Shown: piece by piece, positions 3,219 to 43,521 of the stretch
Layout: every line of letters starts with the position of its first letter
How positions within the stretch are numbered: position 1 is the first letter of the stretch
Sequence record: PZ379180.1
Source of the DNA: a phage
DNA length: 44,016 nt
Reading direction: 5' to 3' (one strand)
Notes under the pieces: generated by a model
Databases searched by the model: none
Told to the model about the DNA's origin: nothing
Seen by the model: only the letters and a program-made list of their open reading frames with translations
Made by a program: the position numbers and the translations under genes

Positions 3219-4046
3219 ATGTTAACTATGAACGGTCAGAATCAGGGTGTTAAGACAAAACACCGGGAATGGCTGCATCACTTCGATAAATGGCAGAAGG
3301 TACGCCACGCTCTTGAAGGCGACCTTATCCGCTATCTGCGTAACGTCGGGAAGAACGAGCCTGACCAGACCTACGCAGCACAGCGACAGGAAGAATACGA
3401 GAACGGCGCTATCTGCTACAATTTCACCAAACGCACGCTGGCGGGGATGACGGGGTCAGTGATGCGCAAAGACCCTGAGCAGATTATCCCGCCTGAACTT
3501 GAGTACCTGTTGCACAACGCGGACGGTTCAGGTGTCGGGCTGTGGCAGCACGCGCAGGATACGCTGATGGAGATTAACTCGATAGGCCGTGGCGGGTTGC
3601 TGGTGGACGCCCCGGAAACAGCCGCAGCAACGGCGGCAGAGCAGAACGCGGGATTATTAAACCCGGTAATCGCATTCTATACCGCGGAGAACATTATCAA
3701 CTGGAGACTCACCCGCATCGGTTCAGTGAACCGCGTGACGATGGTTGTATTGCGTGAGGCATGGGAATACTCGGAACCAGGCGCTGAGTTTGAAACAAAA
3801 TTCGGCGAGCAATACCGCGTCCTTGACCTGATTGACGGTCGCTACCGCCAGCGCATCTACCGCTTCGATGCCGAAGGTGGCGCACAGGATGAAGTAATCG
3901 AAATCTTCCCGGAACTCGGCGAACAGTTGCGCGGTAAAATCCCGTTCACGTTCATTGGCGCAAGCAACAACGACGCCACTATAGACGATGCGCCTTTACT
4001 GCCGTTAGCTGAGCTAAATATAGGACACTTCAGAAATTCGTACTGA
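3219..4046 (+). CDS. portal protein, N-terminal fragment (frame break near 4030-4046)
   Basis: Position after terL; 275 aa ORF ends at TGA 4044-4046 and the next frame continues from 4024. Confidence 0.7.
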   Translation: MLTMNGQNQGVKTKHREWLHHFDKWQKVRHALEGDLIRYLRNVGKNEPDQTYAAQRQEEYENGAICYNFTKRTLAGMTGSVMRKDPEQIIPPELEYLLHNADGSGVGLWQHAQDTLMEINSIGRGGLLVDAPETAAATAAEQNAGLLNPVIAFYTAENIINWRLTRIGSVNRVTMVVLREAWEYSEPGAEFETKFGEQYRVLDLIDGRYRQRIYRFDAEGGAQDEVIEIFPELGEQLRGKIPFTFIGASNNDATIDDAPLLPLAELNIGHFRNSY

Positions 4047-4047
4047 T

Positions 4048-4701
4048 GTGGAAGAGGCCAGCTTTATAGTAGGTCAACCGACACTGTTCATTGCCCCCGG
4101 CGAGAACATGAGCATGGAGCAGTGGAAAGAAGCCAACCCACACGGCATACGCATGGGGTCGCGTTCAGGCCACAACATCGGCTCCGGCGGAAATGCGTTT
4201 CTGGTTCAGGCGGCGGAAACTAACCTCGCCAAACAGAACATGCTGGATAAAGAGAATCAGGCCATCCAGATTGGCGCGCAGCTTATCACCCCGACGCAGC
4301 AAATCACCGCGGAATCGGCCCGCCTGCAACGCGGCGCCGACACGTCAGTCATGGCAACAATAGCACGTAATGTAAGCATGGCGTATACCGATGCGTTGCG
4401 CTGGGTTGCGGGTATGCTTGGGCTTAGTGAAGATACTGAGATTGAGTTCAAGCTGAATATGGAATTCTTCCTGCAACCGATGACCGCTCAGGACCGCGCT
4501 CAGTGGATGGCGGATATTAACGCTGGCCTGCTACCCGCCACCGCTTACTATGCTGCGTTGCGCAAGGCAGGTGTGACTGACTGGACAGATGAGGACATTC
4601 AGAACGCTATTGAAGACGCACCTCTGCCGTTGGGTTCTGTTGCTCAGGTAGCGGGAGAGATTCCGCAGTCGGCGCAGCAACAGGACACCACTCAGCAGTA
4701 A
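4048..4701 (+). CDS. portal protein, C-terminal fragment
   Basis: 217 aa ORF in +1 frame starting 1 nt after the upstream stop; frame open from 4024. Confidence 0.65.
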   Translation: MEEASFIVGQPTLFIAPGENMSMEQWKEANPHGIRMGSRSGHNIGSGGNAFLVQAAETNLAKQNMLDKENQAIQIGAQLITPTQQITAESARLQRGADTSVMATIARNVSMAYTDALRWVAGMLGLSEDTEIEFKLNMEFFLQPMTAQDRAQWMADINAGLLPATAYYAALRKAGVTDWTDEDIQNAIEDAPLPLGSVAQVAGEIPQSAQQQDTTQQ

Positions 4702-4711
4702 GTTCACCTAT

Positions 4712-4734
4712 AGCCCCGAAAGGGGCTTTCTTAT
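4712..4734 (+). terminator. possible intrinsic terminator
   Basis: AGCCCC-gaaa-GGGGCT hairpin followed by TTCTTAT. Confidence 0.4.
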
Positions 4735-4737
4735 AGT

Positions 4738-5814
4738 ATGCTATTAACTTTAGCGCCACAGGGTTTATCTATGAGCTTACTTACATCCCTAATCAGCCAT
4801 CAGATATGGCTGCAACGCACCGCATCCGGTGAAGTGAAAGACCTCACGCCGTTCATTCAGGAGATAAGGGATGAAATCAAACGGCAGGTGCTGTTATTCG
4901 GTGACGACGGTCGCAGCACTGCGCGACTGAATAAACTGTTACGCGACCTGGAAGAAGCACTAACCGGTATTACGGGTGACTGGCAAACAAAGCTAACAGA
5001 CGACCTTAAGGAACTGGCGGCGTACGAGGCTGAGTGGAACGTAAAGACACTGACCGCCAACGTAGACGCGGAATTTGTTACGCCTACCGCTGAGCAGGTA
5101 TGGGCCGCTGCCGAGTTTCAACCATTATCATTGAGCGACAAGCCCGTTGATTTCACCAAGCTGATGTCTGGATGGGGCGAAACGGAAGTAGCACGTCTTG
5201 TAACTGGAGTTAAGATGGGCTTTGTGCAAGGTCAAACCACACGGCAGATTGTTAAGAATGTTGTTGGCGCTGGTGGACTAGCCGACATCTCAGAACGTAA
5301 CGCGACTACGGTAATCCGCACCGCGCTGTCCCACGTATCCAACGAGGCCCGTAACGAGACGTACCGCCAGAACGACGACATCATCGAGAAATATGAGTGG
5401 GTGTCAACTTTGGACAGCCGTACCAGCACGATTTGCAGGGCCAGAGACGGAATGACGTGGGAAATCGGTAAAGGTCCGATGCCACCAGCCCATCCTAATT
5501 GCCGAAGTACCACTGCACCGGTAATCAGTTCAGAGTTCGACTTCCTTGATAAAGGCGCAAAACGCGCGGCTAAAGGCGCGGAAGGTGGCACTCAGGTAAG
5601 CGCAGACACCACTTACTACGAGTTCCTTAAACAACAACCGGCGTGGTTTCAGGACCAGGCGCTCGGCCCGGTGCGAGGTAAGATTTTCCGTAACAGCGGT
5701 ATATCGCCGGAAGAGTTTCGCGTAATATCTGTAGATGGTTTCGGGAATCCGCTCACGCTTAAGCAGATGGCGGAACTCGATAAACGTGTTGCTGATTATC
5801 TGAAAGGGGAATAA
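4738..5814 (+). CDS. head morphogenesis protein (Mu gpF / SPP1 gp7-like)
   Basis: 358 aa, position after portal, composition typical of minor head proteins. Confidence 0.65.
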   Translation: MLLTLAPQGLSMSLLTSLISHQIWLQRTASGEVKDLTPFIQEIRDEIKRQVLLFGDDGRSTARLNKLLRDLEEALTGITGDWQTKLTDDLKELAAYEAEWNVKTLTANVDAEFVTPTAEQVWAAAEFQPLSLSDKPVDFTKLMSGWGETEVARLVTGVKMGFVQGQTTRQIVKNVVGAGGLADISERNATTVIRTALSHVSNEARNETYRQNDDIIEKYEWVSTLDSRTSTICRARDGMTWEIGKGPMPPAHPNCRSTTAPVISSEFDFLDKGAKRAAKGAEGGTQVSADTTYYEFLKQQPAWFQDQALGPVRGKIFRNSGISPEEFRVISVDGFGNPLTLKQMAELDKRVADYLKGE

Positions 5815-6278: not shown

Positions 6279-6299
6279 AAGGCCCCGTTATGGGGCCTT
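6279..6299 (-). terminator. intrinsic terminator (minus-strand T-run)
   Basis: AAGGCCCC-gttat-GGGGCCTT hairpin; on the minus strand followed by TTTTATCATT. Confidence 0.55.
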
Positions 6300-6302
6300 A
6301 GC

Positions 6303-6596
6303 CTACTTTCCTGCCTCATGCGCAATTCGCGCCTCAGCGATAGAAAGATATTCCGAATCCATCTCAATTCCTATAAAGCGGAAACCTTCGCGCATGGCTG
6401 CTTTACCGGTGCTGCCACTCCCCATAAACGGGTCGAGAACCACTCCACCTGGTGGCGTCACAAGGCGGCAAAGGTACGCCATGAGGTCGGTTGGCTTGAC
6501 GGTGGGATGATTATTGGCCTCTCCTCTGTCCTTGCGGCTCGTTTTAGCGCAGTAGAAGAACCGGGCGGCGCTCTTGTCTGTCTCTACGCGCGGCAC
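6303..6596 (-). CDS. DNA N6-adenine methyltransferase, C-terminal fragment
   Basis: FFYCAK, HPTVKP and DPFMGSGST motifs; its frame is open upstream to about 6752 and reads VPANLIHDGSDEV. Confidence 0.8.
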   Translation of the reverse strand: MPRVETDKSAARFFYCAKTSRKDRGEANNHPTVKPTDLMAYLCRLVTPPGGVVLDPFMGSGSTGKAAMREGFRFIGIEMDSEYLSIAEARIAHEAGK

Positions 6597-7465
6597 ATAC
6601 TGCTTACCGTTGTCACTGGTGGCGCCGTAGCAGTTAGCCCGCGAGCGCTGGCTATCATCGCTTTTTCCCTGCTGACCTTTGGCTTCAGGGAAAGCGGTAA
6701 TAACCTCATCGCTTCCGTCATGAATAAGATTGGCTGGTACCAGCGTCCCAATTCATTGCCAGATTGAGGGCCACATGCGTAGGTTGATTCACTTTTTGCG
6801 GCGTGAAGCTGTCCGCCTTTGATGTTGTCTTTATAAGGTGTTCTTCTGGCCCAAACATCCCCCACCACCCGACACCCATCAATATTAATCGCACCTGTCC
6901 CCCACTCCAGCACGTTAGCCGCGACCGTACCTTTGAACGGCTTGCGGGCTACGGTGATTGGCTCAAGTGCTGGTTTGAGTGCGGTGCCCCAGCCGTTCCA
7001 CTGGCGGGCGGATTCGGTGGCGGGGGAGGCGATGTCAAGCCCTTTGCCGTACTCGCCATAGACGCCACCCGTCGTTGCGGTTGCCTCGCTGCGCCCCACC
7101 ACTTCACGCTCTGCGCCTGCCGCCTTGTCGATAGCCTTGCTCACATCCATACTTTTCGGAAAACCACTACCATATACCCATGCAATCATGTCACGAATCT
7201 CAAAACCAGCGTCCTCAATCCGCACAGCCATGCGGTGCTGGGTGCGAGTGCCTGCGAAGGCCAGTAGGTGACCACCTGGCTTCAGGACACGCAGGCATTC
7301 CTCCCAGATTGCCTGTTCTGGCACATCGTAATCCCACTTTTTACCCATAAACGACAGGCCATAAGGCGGGTCGGTGACTATGCTATCTACGGAATTGTCG
7401 GGAATACCCTTTAATACCTCAAGGCAATTCCCTAGATGAATATTGTATGGTTTAGTATAAGCCAT
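6584..7465 (-). CDS. DNA N6-adenine methyltransferase, N-terminal fragment
   Basis: DPPY motif near N-terminus, GTGAINIDGCRV, GRW; last 50 residues of the ORF are out-of-frame read-through; AGGAGG RBS. Confidence 0.85.
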   Translation of the reverse strand: MAYTKPYNIHLGNCLEVLKGIPDNSVDSIVTDPPYGLSFMGKKWDYDVPEQAIWEECLRVLKPGGHLLAFAGTRTQHRMAVRIEDAGFEIRDMIAWVYGSGFPKSMDVSKAIDKAAGAEREVVGRSEATATTGGVYGEYGKGLDIASPATESARQWNGWGTALKPALEPITVARKPFKGTVAANVLEWGTGAINIDGCRVVGDVWARRTPYKDNIKGGQLHAAKSESTYACGPQSGNELGRWYQPILFMTEAMRLLPLSLKPKVSREKAMIASARGLTATAPPVTTVSSMCRA

Positions 7466-7491
7466 TTTCAGCCTCCTGTTTAAGTTAACTG

Positions 7492-7505
7492 AATAGTACC
7501 CTATT
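7492..7505. promoter_or_regulatory. palindromic operator-like site AATAG-N4-CTATT
   Basis: GAATAGtaccCTATTATGTTGG; member of a 6-7 copy family. Confidence 0.5.
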
Positions 7506-7573
7506 ATGTTGGTGTCCGCAAACTATTTGTTCACGTATTCCAGTTATTCCGCTCAATTGTAAATGTCGGAATA

Positions 7574-17034: not shown

Positions 17035-17063
17035 TTGGTGTAAGTGAATAGTACGCTATTATA
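17035..17063 (+). promoter_or_regulatory. promoter-like element with AATAG-N4-CTATT palindrome
   Basis: TTGGTG-16-TATTAT with palindrome 17047-17060 in spacer; minus strand reads TATAAT at 17058-17063. Confidence 0.45.
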
Positions 17064-17183
17064 TTGGGGAGTGCAAGTAGTGTGCTAGAATAATTTTGCG
17101 CCTAGTGTCGCACACGAAAAGCGGGTGGTTCCCGTCTGGCGCATTTCCTTTAACCAGTAACCTCTTAACCAAAGGATTAAAGA

Positions 17184-17748: not shown

Positions 17749-17964
17749 ATGCCCCCTGAGCTACTAACCACATTTGAGAAGTACAGGGAAATTAAATTCA
17801 CCCGCCGAGTGGACGACGACGGCATCAAGATGTACCCGCGCGAGCAATTACGATGGTCAGATTTAGTGGCGTACAGCACCGTTTCAGGCCAGAATATAGG
17901 GATGTTCGAATCCGACATCATCATGAGCTTAGACGCTATTTTCGAGGGTAGAAACGATGGCTGA
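17749..17964 (+). CDS. hypothetical protein, possibly distal part of chaperone frameshift extension
   Basis: 71 aa ORF overlapping tape measure start; frame open from 17683. Confidence 0.3.
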   Translation: MPPELLTTFEKYREIKFTRRVDDDGIKMYPREQLRWSDLVAYSTVSGQNIGMFESDIIMSLDAIFEGRNDG

Positions 17965-19036
17965 TGTAGCTAGTTTAGTAGTAAAAGTAACAGAGCAAGG
18001 CGCGAAAGCCACATCAGACCGTCTTGACAACCTTTCAAAGTCCGCAAAAGTAGCGGGGGCCGCCGTAGCAGGCCTTGCTTCTATCGTAGCGGCTACCGCG
18101 TATAAAGCTGCCCAAGAACTGGTTGACTCACAGCGGCAACTGGACAAGATGTCCGCCAGTTTGAAGACCTTAACAGGAAGTACCCAAGGTGCTAAACAGG
18201 CGCTAAGTATCCTGCAAGATTTTGCCCGCGATACCCCATACGGACTGGAGCAGGCGGTGGAAGGCTTCCGTAAGCTGGTGGCCCTTGGCCTTACCCCATC
18301 CGAGGAGGCGTTGCGGTCCTACGGCAATACCGCATCGGCTATGGGCAAGGACCTTAATCAGATGATTGAGGCGGTAGCCGACGCCAGTACGTTTGAGTTC
18401 GAACGCCTAAAAGAATTCGGCATCAAAGCCAAGCAGAACAAAAACGACGTAGAGTTTACATTCCAGGGGACAACAACCGTAGTTAAGAAAAGCGCTGCCG
18501 ATATTGAGCAGTATTTACTTAATATTGGTAACGTAAATTTTGCCGGTGCCATGGCGGACCAGGCCAACACCCTTAATGGCGCTATCGCGAGCGCCAGTGA
18601 CTCATGGTCGCAGCTAAAAATGACGCTTGCCACCAGTCTTGATGTTGGCGCACTTGCGGAACCTATCAGGTATATCAATGACTTGATCCAGGAATTAAAT
18701 GCGTCTGTTGCTTCCGGTGAATTAGCCGCTGAAATGCAGATGTGGGGGAACATCGCGTCGGAAGTAGGAAGCGCTATCGAGATGTCATTCGACGCTGCGT
18801 TTGGCTTTGTTGGCGATGCCATCAACGGGCTTAATGAACTGTGGGATTTCAGCAGCAAGAGTATTACGGATAGCGGAGAACAAACGGCTACTACCATCGC
18901 TGAATCCACCGCCGATGCGCTTGACTTCATCGCGGAAGAGTTCACCGCGATGGAGAGATTCTTTGAAGATATGGTTAAAGGCGCGCAGGACGCGGGCCGT
19001 CTTGTACGAGCCGCTTTTACCCCAGGGAATCAGTAG
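17957..19036 (+). CDS. tape measure protein, fragment 1
   Basis: Ala/Gln-rich helical 359 aa ORF after chaperone; frame breaks between 18979 and 19036. Confidence 0.75.
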   Translation: MADVASLVVKVTEQGAKATSDRLDNLSKSAKVAGAAVAGLASIVAATAYKAAQELVDSQRQLDKMSASLKTLTGSTQGAKQALSILQDFARDTPYGLEQAVEGFRKLVALGLTPSEEALRSYGNTASAMGKDLNQMIEAVADASTFEFERLKEFGIKAKQNKNDVEFTFQGTTTVVKKSAADIEQYLLNIGNVNFAGAMADQANTLNGAIASASDSWSQLKMTLATSLDVGALAEPIRYINDLIQELNASVASGELAAEMQMWGNIASEVGSAIEMSFDAAFGFVGDAINGLNELWDFSSKSITDSGEQTATTIAESTADALDFIAEEFTAMERFFEDMVKGAQDAGRLVRAAFTPGNQ

Positions 19037-19074
19037 ACGTAGCTAAAAATATCAACTTCCAGCTTGGCCTGGCT

Positions 19075-19371
19075 TTGGATACCCAGCGCGATGTCGCCGA
19101 CGTTACGCGTAAAAGTTTCCGCGAACAGGTAGAAGCTCAACAGGATATTGTAGCGTTAAAACGCGCGGCGTATGACATCGATAAGGAGTCCGCAAAAGCT
19201 GAGGGGTTAAACAAATTTAAGGTAACCGGAACTGGCGGCGGTTCTGACGATGACGGGTCAGCCGCAAAAGCTGCTAAGAAAGCGGCGGACGCGTTCGAGC
19301 GCCAGAAAAAGCGGCGGAAGACTTCTACTATCAGTCAATCCATCTTAATGATGACGTATTTCAGAAAATAG
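19075..19371 (+). CDS. tape measure protein, fragment 2
   Basis: -1 frame open from 18979 to 19371; breaks at A5 run 19306-19310. Confidence 0.6.
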   Translation: MDTQRDVADVTRKSFREQVEAQQDIVALKRAAYDIDKESAKAEGLNKFKVTGTGGGSDDDGSAAKAAKKAADAFERQKKRRKTSTISQSILMMTYFRK

Positions 19372-19400
19372 AAGCTAACCAGGAAGAGCAACTGTCTAAG

Positions 19401-20294
19401 TTGCAGGATTTTTATAGCAATAAGCTTCTTAGCGACCAACAGTACGAAAACGCCAAGACGCAGATTATGCTCTCTGCCGAACAGGCCCGCCAGGAAGAAC
19501 TGGACAAGAAAAGGAAAGAAGCCCAGGAGAAGCAGCAGAAAGGTGATGATTTCATGGCTCAGATTATGGGCCAGAACGCCACCGAGCTTGAGCTTCTGGA
19601 TATTCAGGAACAGCAGAAACTGGCGGTAGCCGATAAGTACCAGGAACAAGGTCTGATTAGCGAGAAGCAGTATCAGGCCGCGCTTAACGCCATCAACGAG
19701 CAGTACGCAACCAAGCGTGCCGACGCAACGGCAACAGCTTTCGGTAACATGGCTTCAAACATCGGGTCTGCGTTGGGCGAGGCTTCTGGTGCGTACAAGG
19801 CATTCGCTATCGTACAGGCCACTATAGCCACGTACACCGCAGCTATCGAGGCGTACAAGTCAACGGCTGCTATCCCTGTAGTCGGTCCGTTCCTGGCCCC
19901 AGTAGCCGCTGCTGCTGCTGTTGGGGCCGGTATGGCGCAGATTTCCGCTATCAGGTCAGCACGTGAACAGGGTGGACAGTTATCCGCCGGGCAGGCTTCC
20001 ACCATCGCCGAACGCGGTAAACCTGAGGTAATTATGCCGGCGGGGGCGTCGCGAGTACGCACCGCGCAACAAATGAAAGAGATTATGGGCCAAAACGGGT
20101 CTTCTTCCGGCCCATCTAATGTTACTATCGTAAACAACACGAGTTCGCAAATCGGCAACGTATCCACCGAGCAGGATGATGAAGGCCGTCTGCGTATCAT
20201 CATAGAAGAGCAAGTTGCTGCATCTTTGCAGAACAGCAACAGTAAGATTAGCAAGGCCCGCAAGGCCACAAGAAACGCGCCGGGGTTTAAATAA
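19401..20294 (+). CDS. tape measure protein, fragment 3
   Basis: Frame open from 19278; Q/E-rich coiled coil and hydrophobic AAIPVVGPFLAPVAAAAAVGAG segment. Confidence 0.7.
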   Translation: MQDFYSNKLLSDQQYENAKTQIMLSAEQARQEELDKKRKEAQEKQQKGDDFMAQIMGQNATELELLDIQEQQKLAVADKYQEQGLISEKQYQAALNAINEQYATKRADATATAFGNMASNIGSALGEASGAYKAFAIVQATIATYTAAIEAYKSTAAIPVVGPFLAPVAAAAAVGAGMAQISAIRSAREQGGQLSAGQASTIAERGKPEVIMPAGASRVRTAQQMKEIMGQNGSSSGPSNVTIVNNTSSQIGNVSTEQDDEGRLRIIIEEQVAASLQNSNSKISKARKATRNAPGFK

Positions 20295-24238: not shown

Positions 24239-26374
24239 ATGTCAAGCGGATGCGGTGACGTTTTAAGCCTGGCGGATTTACAGACCGCCAAGAAACATCA
24301 GATTTTCGAGGCCGAGGTTATCACTGGCAAATCCGGCGGTGTAGCTACGGGTGCAGACATTGATTACGCAACAAATCAGGTTACGGGACAGACCCAGAAG
24401 ACCATGCCTGCGATATTGAGAGATATTGGATTTGAACCCGCTTCTTTTGATTTTACCACAGGCGGTACCCTCACTTCTTCGGACCGAAATAAAGCCGTTT
24501 TGTGGCCTATGGCGGATGGTGGAGATGGGGATTGGTACTATTGGGAGGGCGCGCTGCCGAAGGTTATCCCGGCCGCATCAACTCCTTCGTCTACTGGTGG
24601 TGTCGCTGAGGGGGCCTGGCGTCCTGTCGGGGATATTCAACTACGCGCACAGCTTGCGTCTAGCGATGACGTGTTTGGCGACATGTTGGTTGCGGTTAAA
24701 CAGCCGTACTATGGTTCTGTACTCCAAACGCAACACAATAAAAACTCCCGAATCCTAGACCTTTACGATTTCAACGGCCTACCATCCAATGCCGATAACA
24801 CATCTGCATTGAATTCGGCCTTATCTGCCATTAACTCTATGGGCGGCGGCTTGCTGCGTATTAATATTCCTGGTGTTTATCTCATATCAGGGACGATAAC
24901 TGTTTACGCAAACACACATATAGTCATGGATGATGGTGTTGTTATTCGCCGAAACTACACAACAGGCGATAGTATGGTGAACCTTGCCCGCAATTCTGCT
25001 AGCAATGTCACTATCTCCGGCGGAGAGTTCGATGGCAACGCGCAAAACATGGGCGATACCGCCTTCAATATTATCTCCAGCACACTGAATACCGACCTCA
25101 AGTTTATAGGGGTTAAGTTCAGTAATGTTTGTGACTACCACTGCATCGACATCGCCGGATGGAAGCGCGTTGTCATTCGTGACTGCGTCTTTTCGGGATT
25201 CAAGTTAGTAGACCCATCACGAAACTATTCGGAAGCCATCCAGCTAGACCCAGGTGATATAAGCATCGGCACACCGACACAATGTAACGATTTGACAGTA
25301 GACAACTGCATCGTCATGCCAAACGCAAACTCTTCGCTCGGCAGTTTTGGCGCTTTGGTGGGAAATCACGCCACCTCATACGGCATACAGGATAACAATA
25401 TAAAAATAATCAATAACACCACAGAGGGGTGTCTTTTTGCCGGTGTTAGGGTTTTCAACTGGAGAAACTACCTTATTGCGGGTAATACATTCAGGGACTC
25501 TACCGGGCGCGGTGTGCACGTAACGCCGTATCCAAACTCAACTAAACCGCAGGGTTCGCGCCACGGTCGCATCGTAAACAATAATTTTATAAATGTACGC
25601 AACCCCGTGCTATTGGTCGCAGCTACCTGGCCCTTCACGGATGCCTCCGATGTTTGGCATGATTACATAGAGATAGTCAACAACTCCATGGAACTAAGTG
25701 AGACGCTCGCCTATGGGATAGATGCAAGATGGTGCCGTAATATCGTCGTATCTGGTAATACCGGTTCGGGCGGGTTGGGGCTTATGTCTATGAGGTTCCC
25801 TAATAAGTTCTCCGTGAAAAACAATACCTGGTCTAACGCTACGAATAATGGTATTTGGATTGCGGAGACCGATGCGACAACATTCATAGGAGCTGGGTTG
25901 ACGGCATTAGGCACTATAGAGGGGAATGTTTTCGAAAATATCGCCTACAATGGCATACATATTAACTGCAAGGCTAACGGCGTTACTATTCGCGGTAACA
26001 CCATGAGCGGTGTCTCTACGGCGGCAACATCCCGCTCCGGCATAACTATAGACTCTGGAGCGAGCAACGTCATAATATCAAACAATTGCATCATGGATAA
26101 TGGTGCGTCGATAAAACCGAACGTTGGTATCATTGCAACAGCTACATGCACAAATGTGCATATGGTGGATAACATCTCCTACGGAGGTGTTTCCCCTATA
26201 AATAACCAAGCCACAGGGAATAGCGTGCTCGTGCATACCGGACCAAATTCACCGATAACAGCAGGCATTGGTGCCCCGGTTGGGTCACAGTACCGTAGAG
26301 TAGATGGGTCCCCCTCAACTAGTTTTTACGTCAAAGAGTCAGGAACAAACTCTATTGGTTGGGTTGCTAAATAA
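24239..26374 (+). CDS. tailspike with right-handed beta-helix (pectate lyase-like) domain
   Basis: 711 aa, repeated N-x-G/T-rich coils (NNIKIINNT, VSGNTGSGG, IRGNTMSG, IISNNCIMDNG); AAAGAGGA RBS. Confidence 0.7.
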   Translation: MSSGCGDVLSLADLQTAKKHQIFEAEVITGKSGGVATGADIDYATNQVTGQTQKTMPAILRDIGFEPASFDFTTGGTLTSSDRNKAVLWPMADGGDGDWYYWEGALPKVIPAASTPSSTGGVAEGAWRPVGDIQLRAQLASSDDVFGDMLVAVKQPYYGSVLQTQHNKNSRILDLYDFNGLPSNADNTSALNSALSAINSMGGGLLRINIPGVYLISGTITVYANTHIVMDDGVVIRRNYTTGDSMVNLARNSASNVTISGGEFDGNAQNMGDTAFNIISSTLNTDLKFIGVKFSNVCDYHCIDIAGWKRVVIRDCVFSGFKLVDPSRNYSEAIQLDPGDISIGTPTQCNDLTVDNCIVMPNANSSLGSFGALVGNHATSYGIQDNNIKIINNTTEGCLFAGVRVFNWRNYLIAGNTFRDSTGRGVHVTPYPNSTKPQGSRHGRIVNNNFINVRNPVLLVAATWPFTDASDVWHDYIEIVNNSMELSETLAYGIDARWCRNIVVSGNTGSGGLGLMSMRFPNKFSVKNNTWSNATNNGIWIAETDATTFIGAGLTALGTIEGNVFENIAYNGIHINCKANGVTIRGNTMSGVSTAATSRSGITIDSGASNVIISNNCIMDNGASIKPNVGIIATATCTNVHMVDNISYGGVSPINNQATGNSVLVHTGPNSPITAGIGAPVGSQYRRVDGSPSTSFYVKESGTNSIGWVAK

Positions 26375-29613: not shown

Positions 29614-29937
29614 CTAACTATAATAGTTCGCTATTAGGGCGTCAACCTGTTTAAACGAACCAACGACAAAAACATTAGCACCACGCTTACGCATCCGCTC
29701 GTGCTCCCGTAACTGGTGTGGATCCGGCTTCGTGCTTTCGTCTTTCTTTATCTCGACGAACCAGATGACGCCGCCAGGGAGAATTACCAGCAGGTCAGGG
29801 GCGCCGGAACGTCCTTCGTAGGAAAGTTTACGAACGAGGCCACCAATGGCCTCGAATCGGTCTTTTGCGTATTTCTGTATTTTGCCCTCAGGCGTACTCA
29901 TCCACACACCCCTCACGTTTCGTATGCGCAATACCAC
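29614..29937 (-). CDS. VRR-NUC domain nuclease (putative)
   Basis: PDLLVILPGG...FVEIKK resembles PD-(D/E)xK core of VRR-NUC. Confidence 0.5.
   Translation of the reverse strand: MVLRIRNVRGVWMSTPEGKIQKYAKDRFEAIGGLVRKLSYEGRSGAPDLLVILPGGVIWFVEIKKDESTKPDPHQLREHERMRKRGANVFVVGSFKQVDALIANYYS
29617..29645 (-). promoter_or_regulatory. promoter-like element with AATAG-N4-CTATT palindrome
   Basis: Minus strand TTGACG-17-TATAGT, palindrome 29622-29635 in spacer. Confidence 0.45.
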
Positions 29938-29982: not shown

Positions 29983-30114
29983 TCATTCCAGCACCCACAG
30001 ATAAATTGTTACTAACATACCTAATACGGCAACCATCATGCCGTATTGACCCTCGTGACAGTAGACACCGGCGGCGAATCCCGCCAGTACCGCAATAATC
30101 AGTTTACTTGGCAT
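29983..30114 (-). CDS. small membrane peptide (43 aa)
   Basis: Hydrophobic ORF MPSKLIIAVLAGFAAGVY..., below track cutoff. Confidence 0.25.
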   Translation of the reverse strand: MPSKLIIAVLAGFAAGVYCHEGQYGMMVAVLGMLVTIYLWVLE

Positions 30115-31492
30115 ATCGCTTCATCTCCGCACCTTCAGCTACAAGAGGGAACCCCTCCGCCCATTCCGGCAATTCGCACATCAACCGCTCAAGCTCTGCT
30201 ACATTGTATTCCGGTGAATCTGGTGTCTCGCAGATAATCTCATCGTGTACGTGAAGTACAATCGGGTAGCCGTTTGCTTCTACGTTCAGCAGGGCATTAG
30301 CCAGCAAATCACGGCACAATGCCTGAGTGCAGTTTTCCACCAGTTTACCCGAGTAGGTGTACTGGAACCCCCACTGACGGGTTAGCTGATTTTCGCCCTG
30401 GTACTTAATGCGCACGTTAGTAGACACCTTCCCGTCTCCATCTGTTTCTTTCGACACGCTCAACCCGACGCCCGGATAAGACATAACGCGACCCGACGGC
30501 AACGTCATGCGCAACCACCAACCAGCGACTTTGTTGCCGTTGTTGTCCGTTTCTACGTTACGCGAAAACTTAACACCCCGCGGTCCCGCAGTGAACTCTT
30601 TACCTGGATTGCGGATAGCCGCCATAGCCGCGTCTTCAATATCACGCCAGAAAGCTACTGTTTCCGGGTGTGACTCACGCCACATGCGCTTGATAGCGTC
30701 GCAGGTACGCCACACTTTCTTATCAAGAATATACGATGGTCGGTCATCCTTTTCACCTGGCCGCGGAGGTCGCTTGGCTTCCTGAATACGTGCCCATTCA
30801 TAGCCGCGTGCAGTAGCGGCCCATATATGGTTGGGGAATGTCCCGTCCATTGTTTTTGCCATATCAACCAGGTTTAAGCCGAGGTTCTTAGCAAACTGAA
30901 CGAAAGCACCGACACCACCAGCATAGCCAAGGCCCAATTCACATGCTTTACCTATCTGGCGTAGGTCACTACGGCTTTCGAGAATGTAATCAGGGTCCAT
31001 GCCGAACATCTTACCCGCGGTTACACAGTAAATATCCAATCCCGCACGGAAGGTATCGAGAGCGGTTTCTTCTCCCGCCAGCCATGCCAACCCGCGACCT
31101 TCAACGTTAGAGTAATCAGCTACGACAAACTTACGCCCGGCTTCCGGTATGATGCAGCTACGCACCGTCGATGCCGTTAGCTTGGCTACATCGAAACGGC
31201 GATGCGCGCGGCCTTTAAACAACAGGTCGATTCCGTAGGACAATGGGTGTGTTACCCTCCACCAGTCCTTCTCTGACATCCAGTCATAACGTACTTTCTT
31301 CTTTTTATTCTTCGGGTCGTCATGATAGTACCCGCGCGCCAGGTTCTGTGGCTGGAAGCCTTTACCCGCGAACCGTAACGTACGCTTTGCCCCACCGTAC
31401 TGGATACAACCGCGGCGTCGGTCGTCCGACGAGCGGCCTAACAGCAGCGGGTTATATTTCGTGGACGCTGTTGACGCGGCCCCGAGGCGCAT
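30104..31492 (-). CDS. DNA polymerase family A, polymerase-domain fragment
   Basis: Motif A VADYSNVEGRGLAWLAG, motif B RQIGKACELGLGYAGG, motif C LHVHDEIICE. Confidence 0.85.
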   Translation of the reverse strand: MRLGAASTASTKYNPLLLGRSSDDRRRGCIQYGGAKRTLRFAGKGFQPQNLARGYYHDDPKNKKKKVRYDWMSEKDWWRVTHPLSYGIDLLFKGRAHRRFDVAKLTASTVRSCIIPEAGRKFVVADYSNVEGRGLAWLAGEETALDTFRAGLDIYCVTAGKMFGMDPDYILESRSDLRQIGKACELGLGYAGGVGAFVQFAKNLGLNLVDMAKTMDGTFPNHIWAATARGYEWARIQEAKRPPRPGEKDDRPSYILDKKVWRTCDAIKRMWRESHPETVAFWRDIEDAAMAAIRNPGKEFTAGPRGVKFSRNVETDNNGNKVAGWWLRMTLPSGRVMSYPGVGLSVSKETDGDGKVSTNVRIKYQGENQLTRQWGFQYTYSGKLVENCTQALCRDLLANALLNVEANGYPIVLHVHDEIICETPDSPEYNVAELERLMCELPEWAEGFPLVAEGAEMKRYAK

Positions 31493-32370
31493 TTCGATAA
31501 TCGTGCGGGCGTCGTCAGGTAAATCATCATCGGTACCAGCAGGTCATTCAGCGTCGACTTCTGTGCGTTGTGTATGCGGTGTGCGGGGGCCAGTTCACGT
31601 AGAATAGGCAGAAAGTCCTTACCGGTAAGCGAGCCGCCGTATTTACGTTGAGCTTCTTCCTGTAACTGTGCCTTGTGCTTCTCTACGGCTTCAATCGCGG
31701 CTTCCGCCAGTGCGACGTCAACCTTAAATCCGCGGTCGTTGATTAACTGGTCAAGTTCCAGTACACGGTCTTCGAACTCGGAGTTACCCCAACGCGGCAG
31801 CTTATGGAAGACTTCACGCATCGCAGTGATGTCGCTCACGGCGTACCTGATGAACATCGCCCACTCGTCAGGGTGAGTTTCTGCGGTGTAGCGGCGGATT
31901 TTGTAGTTCTTCGGCGTCGGTTTAGAGAAACGCTTAATCAGAGCCTTGCCGCGTTTATCTTTCGCGTTGTCTGCAGACACGCCCAGCACTTCGCACAGCG
32001 CATCAAGAGAACCCGGCAGCGCGTGACGGAACGCCCAAATCATAGTATCAATGGTGTTACTTACCGGAATATCAAAGCCCCAGCAGTGTTTCATGATTAG
32101 GCGATCGAAAAGTCCACCGTTGTGCCATACCATCTTAATGCGACTGTTTGGCTTAACCAGACGGCGTAGAGCGCGGTGTAAATCCACGGGCATATCACTG
32201 CCGTCGGTGCAATCCCATACCTGTACAGGCTCGTCGTCAAAAGCGTAGGTACAGATAAGCACTTCGGTAGTTGGATGCTCGGCGTAAGCATAGGAGCCGA
32301 CTTTCTTCAAATCGGCTTCGGAGAATGTTTCAAAGTCTAAGTAAAGCAATGTGTTCATAGTCTGTACCAC
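31438..32370 (-). CDS. DNA polymerase family A, 3'-5' exonuclease-domain fragment
   Basis: Exo I motif LYLDFETFS; ORF overlaps the polymerase fragment by 55 nt in another frame. Confidence 0.8.
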   Translation of the reverse strand: MVQTMNTLLYLDFETFSEADLKKVGSYAYAEHPTTEVLICTYAFDDEPVQVWDCTDGSDMPVDLHRALRRLVKPNSRIKMVWHNGGLFDRLIMKHCWGFDIPVSNTIDTMIWAFRHALPGSLDALCEVLGVSADNAKDKRGKALIKRFSKPTPKNYKIRRYTAETHPDEWAMFIRYAVSDITAMREVFHKLPRWGNSEFEDRVLELDQLINDRGFKVDVALAEAAIEAVEKHKAQLQEEAQRKYGGSLTGKDFLPILRELAPAHRIHNAQKSTLNDLLVPMMIYLTTPARLSKCASGPRQQRPRNITRCC

Positions 32371-33384: not shown

Positions 33385-33413
33385 ACTATAATAGCTAACT
33401 ATTCAGGTGTCAA
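33385..33413 (-). promoter_or_regulatory. promoter-like element with AATAG-N4-CTATT palindrome
   Basis: Minus strand TTGACA-17-TATAGT, palindrome 33390-33403 in spacer. Confidence 0.5.
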
Positions 33414-33447: not shown

Positions 33448-33603
33448 TTAAGCATATTGGTACGGTTCGAACTCATCCTCTACAGGGTAGTATCGCATCA
33501 TGGTACCGTTCAAGAACGTGAACGATTCCGAGTGTAGATACCCATCCCAGTGCCATACCATCAAAAAATCTTTATCAGTCGGCATTTCATTTACTTGAAT
33601 CAT
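33448..33603 (-). CDS. hypothetical protein
   Basis: ATG at 33603 with AGGAGG RBS (track ORF 33448..33633). Confidence 0.35.
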   Translation of the reverse strand: MIQVNEMPTDKDFLMVWHWDGYLHSESFTFLNGTMMRYYPVEDEFEPYQYA

Positions 33604-33920
33604 TCTAAATCCTCCTCTGTAACTTGATTCCACTCAGGACGTTTGTCATCCGCCGTTGCGACGCATGGCGCACCGGGCTTACGGGTAATGAAGTCTTTCA
33701 GTTCTTCTTCCGGTACAATTTTAACCGCTTCGGTCGGTGTCATAAGAACTACCTTTTGCAGCATAGTACCGTACTTCTCGAATACTGCATCGGTATCTTT
33801 CCACGCACGATTACCCGGGCGTCCTTCAACCAGTTTATACCCCGGCACTTTCTTACCGGAATGTAACGCAGCAGCCATAGCTTTCTCAACCTTGTCGATG
33901 TGCTGGCGCAACAACGGCAA
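33600..33920 (-). CDS. C-terminal part of Cas4-like nuclease (frame open up to about 34093)
   Basis: Same frame upstream encodes CQWCRFSEQC cysteine triad; C-terminus TEEDLE. Confidence 0.5.
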   Translation of the reverse strand: MPLLRQHIDKVEKAMAAALHSGKKVPGYKLVEGRPGNRAWKDTDAVFEKYGTMLQKVVLMTPTEAVKIVPEEELKDFITRKPGAPCVATADDKRPEWNQVTEEDLE

Positions 33921-34084
33921 CTTCTCATACTCAGCTACGAGTTGCTCTGGCGTAAGCTCAAGTGCAAAGTCGTCCTCCAGTTCTTCCGCCAGCCCCGCGT
34001 TAACGGTTTTTGTACGCGCTGCGCATTGTTCAGAGAACCGACACCACTGACAACCATCTACCGACGGCTTGAAGTCCGACGCTT

Positions 34085-34840
34085 TCAGGTTCTTTTACCC
34101 CGGAAATAGGCATCAAGAGCCAACAGCGCCCGTTTCTGTGCAAACTTAGCGAACAGTTCCAGACCTTCAACCGAGATGTCCCACTCCGATGCACCGCCAG
34201 CGTACGGCTGGAAGATGACCAGTCGAACGGTTGTTATGCTATAACGTCTCTTGAGTCGGCGATAAACGCCGAGAGCATAAAGCATAAGCTGCTTGTTTTC
34301 TTTCGCTTCGACACGATGCCGCCCGGTTTTCAGGTCGCAGATGATAAGCATGTGTTCGTCGGTGTTAGCCAGTTCCTGTATGGCAACAAGGTCAGCAGTT
34401 CCGAACGTCTCAACGCCTTCATACCCCGGATGCAATACCTCAGTAAGATTAACACGCATTTCCAGCTTGGCGTAAGTCGCTATATCGATAATCGCCTTGC
34501 AGTAGTCGGTGTACTTGCGCACCTGCTCAATCATGTCCGCCGTAATCAGTACCGCGCCTTTCATCGGGCTGATTAGTGCCTTAATCTGGCCTTTGCCTTC
34601 ATCCAGCACGTAAGCACCGACTTCACGCTCTAACGGCAGCGCAGTTCCGCGAATATAAGCGTTGAGATGGACCTCAGCTATGGTGTGCATTGCCGTGCCT
34701 AATACAGCGGCTTTACCTGACGTGTTAGGGGTATCTTTTTCACAGGCCAGTGATGCCGCGCAACTTAGCCACTTTTTAGCCCCTGACGGCGACAGTAAGG
34801 CATGTACATCGTTATTGCCGCCGCGTTCTTTAAGAATCAT
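34085..34840 (-). CDS. PD-(D/E)xK nuclease, Cas4/RecB-like (N-terminal part)
   Basis: ICDLKTG (D-x-K) and QLMLYALG (Q-x-x-x-Y) motifs; N-terminal Cys. Confidence 0.6.
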   Translation of the reverse strand: MILKERGGNNDVHALLSPSGAKKWLSCAASLACEKDTPNTSGKAAVLGTAMHTIAEVHLNAYIRGTALPLEREVGAYVLDEGKGQIKALISPMKGAVLITADMIEQVRKYTDYCKAIIDIATYAKLEMRVNLTEVLHPGYEGVETFGTADLVAIQELANTDEHMLIICDLKTGRHRVEAKENKQLMLYALGVYRRLKRRYSITTVRLVIFQPYAGGASEWDISVEGLELFAKFAQKRALLALDAYFRGKRT

Positions 34841-35495: not shown

Positions 35496-35999
35496 TTATT
35501 CTTCTTCGAAATACTTGTTCTTAATCGCCGTCAGGCGTTTCAGGTATTCAGCCAGGTCTTCGTCTTTAATCGCGGCAATCTTCATTTTCTTACCGGTGAA
35601 CTCCTCCAGCAGTTCATCGGAATCGTCGCACGCAGCATCGCTAGGACCTTCGTTAATTGCATCGTCGATAGCCTGAATCTGGTCACGAAGAGACTGGTAA
35701 TCGACCTCTTCTTTCTCTTCTTCTGGTTCTGGAGTCGGCTCCTCTACTTTAGCTTTACGCGGCTTGCGTTTCGGCTTCTCTTCTTCTTCTGCTGGTTTAG
35801 CGTCAACGATGTCTTCACCTTCAACAGGGATTTCTTTTGTTGCTTCTTTTTCGCACTCAGCTACCGCTTCTTTGGTATACACTACCGTCTCTACTTCTAA
35901 CGGCGCTGCAACTTGTGCTGACTGTTTCGCACTGTTCGCAGCAATCAGTTCATGTGCAACTACGAAACGTTCCAGTAATTTTAAGAATTGTTCTAACAT
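35496..35999 (-). CDS. acidic hypothetical protein
   Basis: 167 aa, E/K-rich central low-complexity region. Confidence 0.4.
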   Translation of the reverse strand: MLEQFLKLLERFVVAHELIAANSAKQSAQVAAPLEVETVVYTKEAVAECEKEATKEIPVEGEDIVDAKPAEEEEKPKRKPRKAKVEEPTPEPEEEKEEVDYQSLRDQIQAIDDAINEGPSDAACDDSDELLEEFTGKKMKIAAIKDEDLAEYLKRLTAIKNKYFEEE

Positions 36000-36249: not shown

Positions 36250-36277
36250 ATCTTCACCTCTCGTTTGGTATGGGCTA

Positions 36278-36307
36278 ACTATAATAGCGAACTATTCATG
36301 ATGTCAA
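36278..36307 (-). promoter_or_regulatory. leftward promoter with AATAG-N4-CTATT palindrome
   Basis: Minus strand TTGACA-18-TATAGT, palindrome 36283-36296 in spacer. Confidence 0.5.
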
Positions 36308-36371
36308 TGGGCTTTTCTAAAATAATTAATATGGTACTATTCACACATCAACTGACTAAGGAGTAATTGAC

Positions 36372-36587
36372 ATGCAACCATCCGAACTAGGCATCCGTGT
36401 AGAGCAACGCCGTAAAGAACTCGGCATCTCCCAGCGCCGTCTGGCGGTCCTGACCGGCGTTTCCCAGGGCGCAATTAACCAGCTGGCTCTCGGTGTAACT
36501 CAGGACGTCCGCCCGGCAACGTTGTTTAAACTGGCGGAAGTGCTGGAAGTAGACGCTAAGTGGCTGGCGTTCGGTGAAGGGGCTTGA
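36372..36587 (+). CDS. XRE-family HTH regulator (Cro/CI-like)
   Basis: LGISQRRLAVLTGVSQGAINQL helix-turn-helix; AAGGAG RBS; divergent from leftward operon. Confidence 0.75.
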   Translation: MQPSELGIRVEQRRKELGISQRRLAVLTGVSQGAINQLALGVTQDVRPATLFKLAEVLEVDAKWLAFGEGA

Positions 36588-36603
36588 CGCCCCTTTCTTT
36601 TTA
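36577..36603 (+). terminator. intrinsic terminator
   Basis: AAGGGGC-ttgac-GCCCCTT hairpin followed by TCTTTTTA. Confidence 0.55.
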
Positions 36604-36798
36604 TTGCACCTTTATCGGGTATCTTTTGCGAAACTTACCTAACCCGCAGTACACGCTGTAAGCCTCTGTGTAACTGAACACAACATGATACCCGCGCCCA
36701 TAAGGAACTACGTTAAGAACTTCTACTACTTCGCCTCTGTGGTTGGTGTATTTATTACCTTTCAGTTCGTCGCTTACTTCTTTAAATTTACCGCTCAT
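36601..36798 (-). CDS. hypothetical protein
   Basis: 65 aa ORF coupled to primase gene (overlapping stop-start). Confidence 0.4.
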   Translation of the reverse strand: MSGKFKEVSDELKGNKYTNHRGEVVEVLNVVPYGRGYHVVFSYTEAYSVYCGLGKFRKRYPIKVQ

Positions 36799-39119: not shown

Positions 39120-39353
39120 TTATTCCAGGTCTTCTAAAGTAGCGGTAATCCCGCGAACTTCAGCAAAGGCACTATATTTCCCGCCAACATTTTTCACGAC
39201 GCCAGATTTAACCAGCACTTTTAACGACCCTTCAATAATGACGGAACTATAGTACTTAAAATAACTACGGCGCAAGTCGATAACACTGCATGACCCTTTT
39301 TTACGTGTTAACGAAACGACCGCCGTAAATACGCGTGACTGGAACTCTGTCAT
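39120..39353 (-). CDS. hypothetical protein
   Basis: 77 aa ORF, C-terminus LEDLE. Confidence 0.4.
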   Translation of the reverse strand: MTEFQSRVFTAVVSLTRKKGSCSVIDLRRSYFKYYSSVIIEGSLKVLVKSGVVKNVGGKYSAFAEVRGITATLEDLE

Positions 39354-39553
39354 TTCACATTCTCCTTAATCCACGCTTCCACTTTCTCTGGGTCAAACGT
39401 ACCTGGCTGACGACGGCCCATAATGCGAATACAGCAATCAGGGAACTTCCCACTCTTTAGCCAGTTATTCAGCGTTCGACGAGTAACCCCAATACGCTCA
39501 GCTACCTCATTCTGCGTCATTCTCAAACCCTCATTATCAGTTAACGGAATCAA
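39350..39553 (-). CDS. HTH DNA-binding regulator (AlpA/Xis-like, putative)
   Basis: MTQNEVAERIGVTRRTLNNWLK helix-turn-helix; first gene of leftward operon. Confidence 0.55.
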   Translation of the reverse strand: MIPLTDNEGLRMTQNEVAERIGVTRRTLNNWLKSGKFPDCCIRIMGRRQPGTFDPEKVEAWIKENVK

Positions 39554-39769
39554 GTATACATTGCGAATAATGGGAAATCAAACATAATCGCACCTATTGA
39601 CATTATGAAAATATTCGTTTAAGGTGCTTCTATATCTTAGTTACTTTGATTCCTGTTCACCTTGTAATACCCGCTTGAAACGCAGCTGCGCCAAAGCGCA
39701 AGCGAAGTGTTAAGCGGCAGATTATTGAACATATGAATTATCGTAACTTTCCTTCCTTAGTATCTTAGG

Positions 39770-39782
39770 TTGCCGTGGGCAA
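39770..39782. repeat. 13-bp palindromic site TTGCCGTGGGCAA (copy 1)
   Basis: Inverted half-sites TTGCC/GGCAA; identical copy 71 bp downstream. Confidence 0.5.
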
Positions 39783-39840
39783 GCTCCATTCTCATCGGCA
39801 GCATATCTCTTAAATACCTGATAATTAAAAGTTTCTATAG

Positions 39841-39853
39841 TTGCCGTGGGCAA
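39841..39853. repeat. 13-bp palindromic site TTGCCGTGGGCAA (copy 2)
   Basis: Identical to copy 1, both preceded by TAG and followed by G; half-site TTGCCGTGG again at 40441-40449. Confidence 0.5.
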
Positions 39854-39877
39854 GGTAGAGAGTACTTCACTCCGCTG

Positions 39878-39897: not shown

Positions 39898-39972
39898 ACT
39901 GCGTTGCGTACTCTTTTAAGAAACGAAAGAATCACAACGGCAACGTAACTATTCTCTTGCACACCCCAACAT

Positions 39973-39986
39973 AATAGGATACTATT
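39973..39986. promoter_or_regulatory. palindromic operator-like site AATAG-N4-CTATT
   Basis: Minus strand reads GAATAGtatcCTATTATGTTGGGG, near-identical to copy at 7491. Confidence 0.45.
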
Positions 39987-40020
39987 CACTTATCGAAACG
40001 AGACAGAGGAGTGAGGGTTA

Positions 40021-43471: not shown

Positions 43472-43492
43472 TCTATTTTCTGTAATGACTAG

Positions 43493-43521
43493 TTGACTAT
43501 TATCTACGGCCCTATTATATT
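43493..43521 (+). promoter_or_regulatory. sigma70-like promoter
   Basis: TTGACT-17-TATATT. Confidence 0.5.

Follow-up and report, generated by a model that had tools for sequence, protein, structure and literature searches.

What does a divergent gap with operator-like palindromes control in a phage that has a Cro-like gene and no CI-like repressor? The gap in question covers positions 36250 to 36371 of a phage DNA of 44,016 nucleotides (record PZ379180.1), the whole of which is called the window here. These 122 bp lie between the start of a leftward open reading frame (ORF) for a protein of 75 amino acids (aa) and the ATG of a rightward gene for a 71-aa HTH_3 protein. A sequence-only reading of the window proposed a divergent promoter switch with the geometry of lambda PR/PRM. 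We find that the gap is a real and conserved regulatory module. The reading that we prefer, and hold to be reasonably likely, is a Cro-only circuit in which a single repressor acts genome-wide in an obligately lytic phage, with a lambdoid PL/PR/cro layout and no cI.

For the 2-kb stretch around the gap, nucleotide identity is 99.9% with Escherichia phages BEU35 and BEU33. It amounts to 88-98% with many Kagunavirus genomes, among them K1G, Golestan, and fEg-Eco06, and to 80-90% with hundreds of Salmonella Jerseyviruses. Because of these nucleotide identities, the window is placed in the Guernseyvirinae, siphophages described as virulent, and is taken to be a Kagunavirus, that is, a virulent E. 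coli siphophage. For comparisons within Kagunavirus, 37 loci from IMG/VR were used, which represent 36 distinct relatives.

The leftward promoter had been named as TTGACA-18-TATAGT with a palindrome in its spacer, and both elements are there. A consensus scan gives 11 of 12 matches for this promoter (P_L), which makes it one of only two such sigma-70 matches in the window. Of the 18 spacer positions, 14 belong to the palindrome copy TAATAG-CGAA-CTATTC (O_L), which also overlaps the -10 by that hexamer's first two bases. A degenerate second copy before the Cro-like gene, TAATAT-GGTA-CTATTC (O_R), is also present, 45 bp from the first. In the relatives, the -35 and -10 of P_L are conserved, and the spacer is 17 or 18 bp long through an insertion or deletion between O_L and the -35. 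The -35, the -10 and the arms of O_L are invariant among the Kagunavirus loci; the changes fall in the central 4 bp of O_L and in two or three bases between O_L and the -35. O_R is nearly invariant in the 37 relatives.

Two back-to-back promoters, each overlapped by a palindrome copy, were thus described correctly, but the rightward hexamers TTCTAA-17-TATTCA are weak. TTCTAA (36315-36320) and TATTCA (36338-36343) match the consensus at three of six positions each (6/12 together), TATTCA lacks the conserved final T, and the consensus scan does not report the pair. A better candidate, the extended -10 TG-g-TACTAT, lies 3 bp upstream of TATTCA. We place the promoter of the 71-aa gene (P_R) there because its TG and TACTAT are kept in the 36 distinct relatives, with G, A or C as the middle base, and because Jerseyvirus at the same place has TACTAT preceded at 17 bp by the -35 TTGC(G/A)(T/C) (TTGCGT or TTGCAC).

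Other candidates in the gap were set aside. The second arm of an 8-bp inverted repeat, ATGTCAAT/ATTGACAT (36301-36308, 36366-36373), is not conserved among relatives, and the repeat is treated as chance. TATAAT at 36280-36285 (+) has no -35 partner and was rejected as a rightward -10. The spacing of O_L and O_R gives no argument for cooperative looping, since their distance is 44 or 45 bp among the Kagunavirus loci and 55 bp in Jerseyvirus, which leaves no fixed helical phasing. An Rfam scan of the gap region returned no known RNA family.

The palindrome is not confined to the gap. No gapped palindrome in the window is commoner than AATAG-N4-CTATT, which has seven exact copies; the runner-up has three. 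With one mismatch allowed, this 14-bp core matches 11 times where 1.13 matches are expected. For TAATAG-N4-CTATTA, the 16-bp form, with at most two mismatches, the count is 10 against 1.22 expected, which none of 100 shuffles reached. Since only about 1.2 copies are expected in the whole window, two copies within 122 bp are far beyond chance. A search with a 5-bp centre gave nothing above chance, and the correct centre is 4 bp. The strong copies start at 7491, 17046, 29621, 33389, 36282, 36327, and 39972, and weaker ones at 4731, 41039, and 43487. Every strong copy lies on a predicted promoter core, and the palindrome occurs in at least five promoters outside the gap.

The copies take three registers relative to the -35 and -10, which favours a bound protein over a fixed promoter element: a repressor site can lie wherever it keeps polymerase out. 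In class 1, TTGAC(A/G)-17/18-TATAGT, the palindrome sits in the spacer; the promoters at 36307, 33413, and 29645 are all leftward, and no other stretch from 20 to 40 kb matches sigma-70 as well (11, 11, and 10 of 12). In class 2, TTGC(A/G)(C/G)-17-TACTAT, it covers the -10, at 39957-39985 (+), 17076-17048 (-), and 7521-7493 (-), with an extended -10 version at 36332-36340. In class 3, the centre and right arm of the palindrome supply the -35 (TTGACT at 43493). The features are collected in the table.

Table. Features of the divergent gap and of the other operator-bearing promoters in the window
Feature	Position	Strand	Description
P_L, leftward promoter	36278-36307	-	TTGACA 36307-36302, 18-bp spacer, TATAGT 36283-36278; predicted start near 36271
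O_L, TAATAG-CGAA-CTATTC	36282-36297		1 mismatch to TAATAG-N4-CTATTA; in P_L spacer and -10 edge, about -26 to -11
P_R, proposed rightward promoter, extended -10 TG-g-TACTAT	TG 36332-36333, hexamer 36335-36340	+	Read from sequence; predicted start near 36347
O_R, TAATAT-GGTA-CTATTC	36327-36342		2 mismatches, weakest of the seven strong sites; over P_R -10, about -20 to -5
Ribosome-binding site AAGGAG	36358-36363	+	8 nt before ATG of Cro-like gene; conserved in relatives including Jerseyvirus
Gene of 71-aa single-domain HTH_3/XRE protein, 434-Cro-like	36372-36587	+	Proposed operator-binding repressor; Pfam, PDB, fold, PHROG
Intrinsic terminator of Cro-like gene	36576-36606	+	GAAGGGGC-loop-GCCCCTTT, then T run on plus strand only
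First ORF of leftward operon, 75 aa	36022-36249	-	Cysteine-rich, PHROG 32657; directly behind P_L
Promoter TTGACA-17-TATAGT, 11/12	33385-33413	-	Operator TAATAGCTAACTATTC (33389-33404) in spacer
Promoter TTGACG-17-TATAGT, 10/12	29617-29645	-	Perfect operator TAATAGTTCGCTATTA (29621-29636) in spacer
Promoter TTGCAC (39957-39962)-17-TACTAT (39980-39985)	39957-39987	+	Operator TAATAGGATACTATTC (39972-39987) over -10
Promoter TTGCAC (17076-17071)-17-TACTAT (17053-17048)	17046-17076	-	Operator 17046-17061 over -10
Promoter TTGCGG (7521-7516)-17-TACTAT (7498-7493)	7491-7521	-	Operator 7491-7506 over -10; inserted DNA methyltransferase unit
Weaker site GACTAGTTGACTATTA, 2 mismatches	43487-43521	+	Centre and right half form -35 of TTGACT-17-TATATT promoter

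The promoter with the 33389 site lies upstream of the genes for a single-stranded DNA-binding protein (DUF2815/Enc34) and DNA polymerase and has homologous sites in K1G, wksl3, and Smarc3. The one with the 29621 site precedes methylase and helicase genes, with homologous sites in K1G and wksl3. Small rightward genes beginning at 40020 follow the 39972 site, which has counterparts in wksl3 and Smarc3, and the promoter with the 17046 site lies upstream of an operon for superinfection immunity, an exonuclease, and a polynucleotide kinase. The 43487 site is conserved in K1G and wksl3, and the sites of the ZS lineage are in the same register. In the relatives, the sites on either side of the gap, some 3 kb leftward and 3.6 kb rightward of it, likewise have invariant arms and a variable centre; the half-sites of 39972 are invariant in 33 relatives.

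Beyond Kagunavirus, the motif recurs in three lineages. In Jerseyvirus wksl3, whose Cro-like protein is 49% identical, it has 10 matches against 1.88 expected, at homologous promoters. Both promoters of the homologous gap carry it, and the site on the Cro-like gene's promoter is again the weakest. In Serratia phage Smarc3 (Cro-like protein 42% identical), class 1 and class 2 promoters at homologous positions carry the motif; upstream of the Cro-like gene, no operator with two or fewer mismatches was found, only degenerate candidates. In the ZS lineage of Salmonella phages (41% identical), TAATAC-N4-CTAATA replaces the canonical motif, with four exact sites against 0.28 expected; the homologous divergent gap adds a fifth and less exact copy, at 26238. 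As ZS and Jerseyvirus have the host Salmonella in common, this coordinated change of the arms argues for a phage-encoded binding protein and not for a host factor or the polymerase.

Which protein would that be? The 71-aa protein has a single Pfam HTH_3 domain (E=2.3e-12, 47 bits vs. a cut-off of 23, residues 11-65 of 71) and matches PHROG transcriptional repressor families. Its XRE/Cro-like identity, given earlier from the sequence, is borne out, as 434 Cro is the best match among solved structures in both sequence and fold. With phmmer, the best PDB match is phage 434 Cro, also of 71 aa (E=2e-6, residues 6-68). The AlphaFold2 model has five helices (predicted local distance difference test score 81.5), and its best Foldseek match in the PDB is 2cro, again 434 Cro (template modelling score 0.79, 38% identity), with C.AhdI and C.BclI also among the fold matches. 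A single HTH_3 domain in a protein of about 65-75 aa, a five-helix fold, and a dyad of about 14-18 bp with a variable centre beside its own gene are the marks of the 434 Cro type, and all three are present here. The operators of 434 are 14-bp dyads whose central 4 bp are not contacted, and the palindrome core AATAG-N4-CTATT has the same 5+4+5 geometry. Palindromes of this geometry also lie beside the genes of homologues of the 71-aa protein, namely ACAGT-N4-ACTGT in CobraSix, ATAAC-N4-GTTAT (three copies) in Burkholderia phage vB_PL1, and TGTAG-N4-CTACA (three copies) in the IMG/VR locus L060.

We consider it quite probable that the Cro-like protein is the binder of the palindromes. Its gene is the only helix-turn-helix (HTH) regulator common to all four motif-bearing lineages (Kagunavirus, Jerseyvirus, ZS, and Smarc3); the HTH_17 gene, at 39350-39553 in the window, has no detectable homologue in ZS or Smarc3. 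Two palindrome copies stand directly before the Cro-like gene in Kagunavirus and Jerseyvirus. In both, its own promoter bears the weakest strong site, as expected of an autoregulated repressor. The protein would bind the operator as a dimer and repress transcription.

In the circuit that we infer, the identity of the binder, the way in which it represses, the start sites of transcription, and the sense and timing of control would be as follows. The 71-aa protein would act as a dimeric repressor of the 434 Cro type on TAATAG-N4-CTATTA, whose two half-sites are centred one helical turn from each other, with the 4 bp between them unread. Dimers on dyads at promoter cores would exclude RNA polymerase. 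Binding to O_L, in the spacer and at the -10 edge of the strong P_L, would turn down the recombination and replication operon. The better sites, with zero or one mismatch (O_L, 29621, 33389, 17046, 39972, and 7491), would be filled first. O_R, with two mismatches, would be filled last and at higher concentration, which would cap the synthesis of the protein by negative autoregulation. The gap would then be the hub of a phage-wide regulon, with at least five further promoters whose operators cover the -35, the spacer, or the -10.

Several observations weigh against this reading. P_R has no usable -35 (CTTTTC at 36312-36317), its -10 matches at only four of six positions, and the consensus scan misses it. 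All promoters here are consensus predictions, and the total of promoter-like matches in the window is not above the shuffled expectation, so that only the quality and context of particular matches carry weight. The recognition helices of Kagunavirus (SQGAINQ) and Jerseyvirus (SQSLITH) differ, yet the motif is the same, whereas the helices of Jerseyvirus and ZS (TQSAISH) are similar and the motifs differ. Covariation of helix and operator across Kagunavirus, Jerseyvirus, and ZS was therefore dropped as proof of the binder, because the helix differences do not track the motif cleanly. Between Kagunavirus and Jerseyvirus, HTH_17 is 82% identical, in parallel with their common motif, as against 49% for the Cro-like protein. 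Finally, several 'late' genes in the only RNA sequencing study of a Kagunavirus, K1B4 (PMC12645636), lie, by gene order, behind operator-bearing promoters, which a simple early shut-off does not predict; derepression after a delay, or some other mode, may apply.

The K1B4 data concern the timing of control. The ortholog of the Cro-like gene, gene 004 (3386-3601, +, 216 nt), is classed as 'middle' and the HTH_17 ortholog, gene 008, is among only four 'early' genes, while the 'late' class includes the immunity protein 045, the methylases 053/054, and the DNA polymerase 057 (PMC12645636). These classes are coarse, as they divide 120 min into three bins. They fit delayed expression of the operator-controlled operons better than a simple late shut-off. 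Repression at the promoter cores is the mechanism that we retain; what it does for the infection is the least certain step of our account. A timing device can be built on this. The Cro-like protein would bind the operators but hold the promoters off until replicating genomes titrate it, or it would be a dual activator and repressor like the controller (C) proteins of restriction-modification systems. The late genes 045, 053/054, and 057 behind operator-bearing promoters and the early, operator-free HTH_17 gene would suit such a device, as would C.AhdI and C.BclI among the fold matches and the operator-controlled methyltransferase unit at 6303-7521. The coarse classes count less for it, however, and the operators are centred at about -12 or -18, which are repressing positions; none lies upstream of a -35, as is usual for activation, and the class 1 promoters are near consensus and need no activator. 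We regard this device as unlikely, although it survives better than the other alternatives.

The Cro-only circuit can also be stated more boldly. One Cro-type repressor would run much of the gene-expression programme of the lytic Guernseyvirinae and their relatives through about eight operators. It would be a replication-coupled clock made from a CI-less lambdoid immunity remnant, with its timing set by the ranking of affinities and by titration of the repressor. We offer this as a speculation whose chances are low, if a little above those of the timing device.

A different phage protein could bind the palindrome, either HTH_17 or a DNA-binding protein that has escaped recognition, and the targets of the Cro-like protein would then be different or local. 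The high identity of HTH_17 between the motif-sharing Kagunavirus and Jerseyvirus, its early expression in K1B4, and the lack of clean covariation between recognition helix and motif for the Cro-like protein would all agree with this. HTH_17 is undetectable in ZS and Smarc3, however, and both keep promoter-embedded copies of the motif. Moreover, a 16-bp dyad with a 4-bp centre suits dimers of the 434 Cro type and resembles the operators beside the homologues of the 71-aa protein, and the two copies before the Cro-like gene in Kagunavirus and Jerseyvirus point to that gene. Another binder is improbable on this balance, slightly more so than the timing device.

The palindrome might also need no repressor at all, being intrinsic to a type of phage promoter that is read by host RNA polymerase alone. 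The overlap of CTATTAT, TACTAT, and TATAGT with the arms, which are -10-like on both strands, and the coincidence of every strong copy with a predicted promoter give this some appeal. The three registers, the invariant arms around a freely variable 4-bp centre, and the joint change of both arms at the four exact ZS sites, in the same host as Jerseyvirus, make it very improbable.

The lambda analogy itself remains. The sequence-only reading had said that a CI-like repressor and an integrase are absent, and neither was found among the 29 proteins of the window that were scanned or in the annotated relatives. An S24-type repressor or second HTH gene in the gap was found neither in the window nor in the annotated relatives, and neither Pfam nor PHROGs gives the leftward proteins an HTH or peptidase S24 domain. 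Among 5,426 complete E. coli genomes, none matches the 2-kb region, and hence no prophage copy was found. The PR/PRM geometry is not supported either: the leftward operon encodes recombination and replication proteins and no second repressor, and each promoter has a separate operator of its own, where PR/PRM would have three in tandem under overlapping promoters. A second divergent repressor, a tandem triple operator, and a temperate lifestyle, the traits of a bistable lambdoid switch, are all missing here. The model of that reading, a PR/PRM-type bistable switch, would imply a hidden second repressor and a cryptic temperate lifestyle. The divergent promoters with operator copies and the Cro homologue speak for it, and the leftward 75-aa and 167-aa proteins without known function might seem to allow it, but it is scarcely credible given the missing HTH/S24 domain in these proteins, the absence of the 75-aa ORF from most relatives, the missing integrase and prophage copy, and the two separate operators.

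P_L would be the analogue of PL rather than of PRM, because the layout in ZS and Smarc3 is that of PL with recombination genes and PR with cro and replication genes, and nothing lies between PL and PR. In these two lineages, the Cro-like gene heads an operon that contains the helicase-primase, and the divergent operon encodes the 167-aa protein, a Cas4-like exonuclease, the single-stranded DNA-binding protein, and DNA polymerase. The helicase-primase block is inverted in Kagunavirus and Jerseyvirus, so that the Cro-like gene is monocistronic and has its own terminator. The true cro position is taken by a homologue (38% identical, tblastn) in the temperate lambdoid phage CobraSix, where a 210-aa CI-like repressor is encoded divergently to it and a CII-like gene and then replication genes come after it.

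The surroundings of the gap follow K1G. A rightward structural block is followed by a leftward replication and recombination block, which runs from about 39.5 kb down to 26.5 kb and in which the 71-aa gene is the sole rightward gene. The leftward operon of the gap encodes recombination and replication proteins and leads into the exonuclease, single-stranded DNA-binding protein, and polymerase genes. Its 75-aa ORF is accessory (about 5 of the 36 distinct relatives); in most relatives, the gene of the acidic 167-aa protein (35496-35999 in the window) is directly behind P_L. Pfam and PHROGs gave no function for the neighbouring 75-, 167-, 90-, 65-, and 77-aa proteins.

On the other side, the leftward helicase-primase operon ends at 36601, within the region 36576-36798. 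As the terminator behind the Cro-like gene lacks a minus-strand T run, leftward helicase-primase transcripts could possibly read through as antisense over the Cro-like gene into the P_L operon and cause transcriptional interference. ZS and Smarc3 have no such antisense conflict, their genes being co-oriented. In the relative L005, which is otherwise near-identical, the C-terminal two-thirds of the helicase-primase (4427-5761) is only 32% identical to K1G and the window. This divergence indicates a mosaic exchange right beside the conserved Cro-like gene.

The window genes for portal (3219-4701), tape measure (17957-20294), DNA polymerase (30104-32370), and exonuclease (33600-34840) are each split by a frame change. 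The exonuclease is intact in the close relatives L005 and L010, and the four frame changes are probably indel errors of the source assembly rather than biology. The gap region is unaffected by them.

Further observations concern individual operator sites. The DNA methyltransferase unit (DPPY motif, PHROG 67) at 6279-7521 (-) lies inside the rightward structural operon on the opposite strand and is absent from K1G. Its gene is split into two frames, 6584-7465 and 6303-6596, and the unit has a minus-strand terminator (6299-6279) and its own operator-bearing promoter (7491-7521). The divergent gap between the 17046 operator and the tail assembly chaperone gene at 17184 contains an Rfam match to int-alpA RNA at 17095-17159 (+), with 36.6 bits vs. 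a gathering score of 35.8 (E=4.6e-4). The operator-like TTATAGTATGCTATTA at 4731-4746, with one mismatch, comes right after a terminator, and the head morphogenesis gene has its annotated start in overlap with it; Jerseyvirus keeps this sequence (L002 42385-42400).

Two repeated elements lie near the 39972 site. The 15-bp GTTGCCGTGGGCAAG, with the dyad TTGCC-N3-GGCAA, occurs twice, at 39769-39783 and 39840-39854, 71 bp apart. Both copies fall in the divergent gap of 470 bp that separates the HTH_17/helicase-primase operon from the small rightward genes. They may form a second operator, which HTH_17 might use, or an element of a replication origin. The leader ATCGAAACGAGA (39992-40003) directly follows the class 2 promoter at 39972 and recurs after class 2 promoters in wksl3 (L002 near 8660) and three times in Smarc3 (L065 near 100, 3800, and 27540). 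It is a conserved 5' leader.

The Cro-only circuit is of use chiefly for phage-therapy genomics and as a testable model of control. For the biocontrol and therapy of Salmonella and E. coli, the Guernseyvirinae (Jerseyvirus, Kagunavirus) belong to the phages that are put forward most often, and the 'repressor' in their annotation regularly raises the question of whether it might mark a temperate lifestyle. According to one Jerseyvirus genome paper, Cro is absent (PMC5217580). In the searchable literature, we came across no account of the operator or of the regulon. The map offered here links one Cro-like protein, through a defined operator of 16 bp, to about eight target promoters; it can be tested and argues that the Cro-like gene is a regulator of the lytic cycle and not a lysogeny repressor. 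It also suggests how the early region of a lambdoid phage can survive, and its operators spread, once cI is lost or if it was never there. As a compact repressor and operator pair with natural variants in ZS, it could serve as an orthogonal genetic part.

Among known systems, 434 Cro with its OR and OL (and likewise P22 Cro/C2) is closest. The single HTH_3 domain, the 71 aa, and the five-helix fold agree, and so do dyads with arms of 5-6 bp and a variable central 4 bp that cover promoter cores, one of them on the repressor's own promoter. Unlike 434, there is here no partner CI and no lysogeny, the half-site is TAATAG instead of ACAA, each promoter has one operator instead of three in tandem, and further operators are spread over the whole genome.

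The early region of lambda, with Cro turning down both PL and PR as in a cI-deleted lambdoid phage, is similar in plan. One small repressor would turn down a leftward recombination operon and the rightward operon of its own gene, and in ZS and Smarc3 the rightward operon carries the replication helicase-primase, just as cro heads the replication genes. The differences are that the two promoters here stand back to back with nothing in between, that in Kagunavirus and Jerseyvirus the inverted helicase-primase block leaves the Cro-like gene monocistronic, and that the fold of lambda Cro is not that of the 71-aa protein.

P1 C1, gp71 of mycobacteriophage L5 with its 'stoperators', and the phiC31 repressor with its inverted repeats each act as one repressor on many scattered sites, mostly in or near promoters. 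The scattered multi-operator regulon is common to them and to the phage described here. Theirs maintain lysogeny, however, whereas here the phage is obligately lytic and the repressor is of Cro size, without a C-terminal domain. The C proteins (C.AhdI, C.BclI) have a similarly small XRE fold, are autoregulated through paired dyads before their own gene, and work as timing devices. Their C-boxes are upstream of or over the -35 and first activate and then repress one operon, in contrast to the repressing positions in many promoters found here. Protein p4 of phi29, at A2b/A2c/A3, has an unrelated fold, activates the late promoter, and has no genome-wide regulon, but it offers a parallel in lifestyle, as there too a small DNA-binding protein of a virulent phage re-programmes transcription at divergent promoters.

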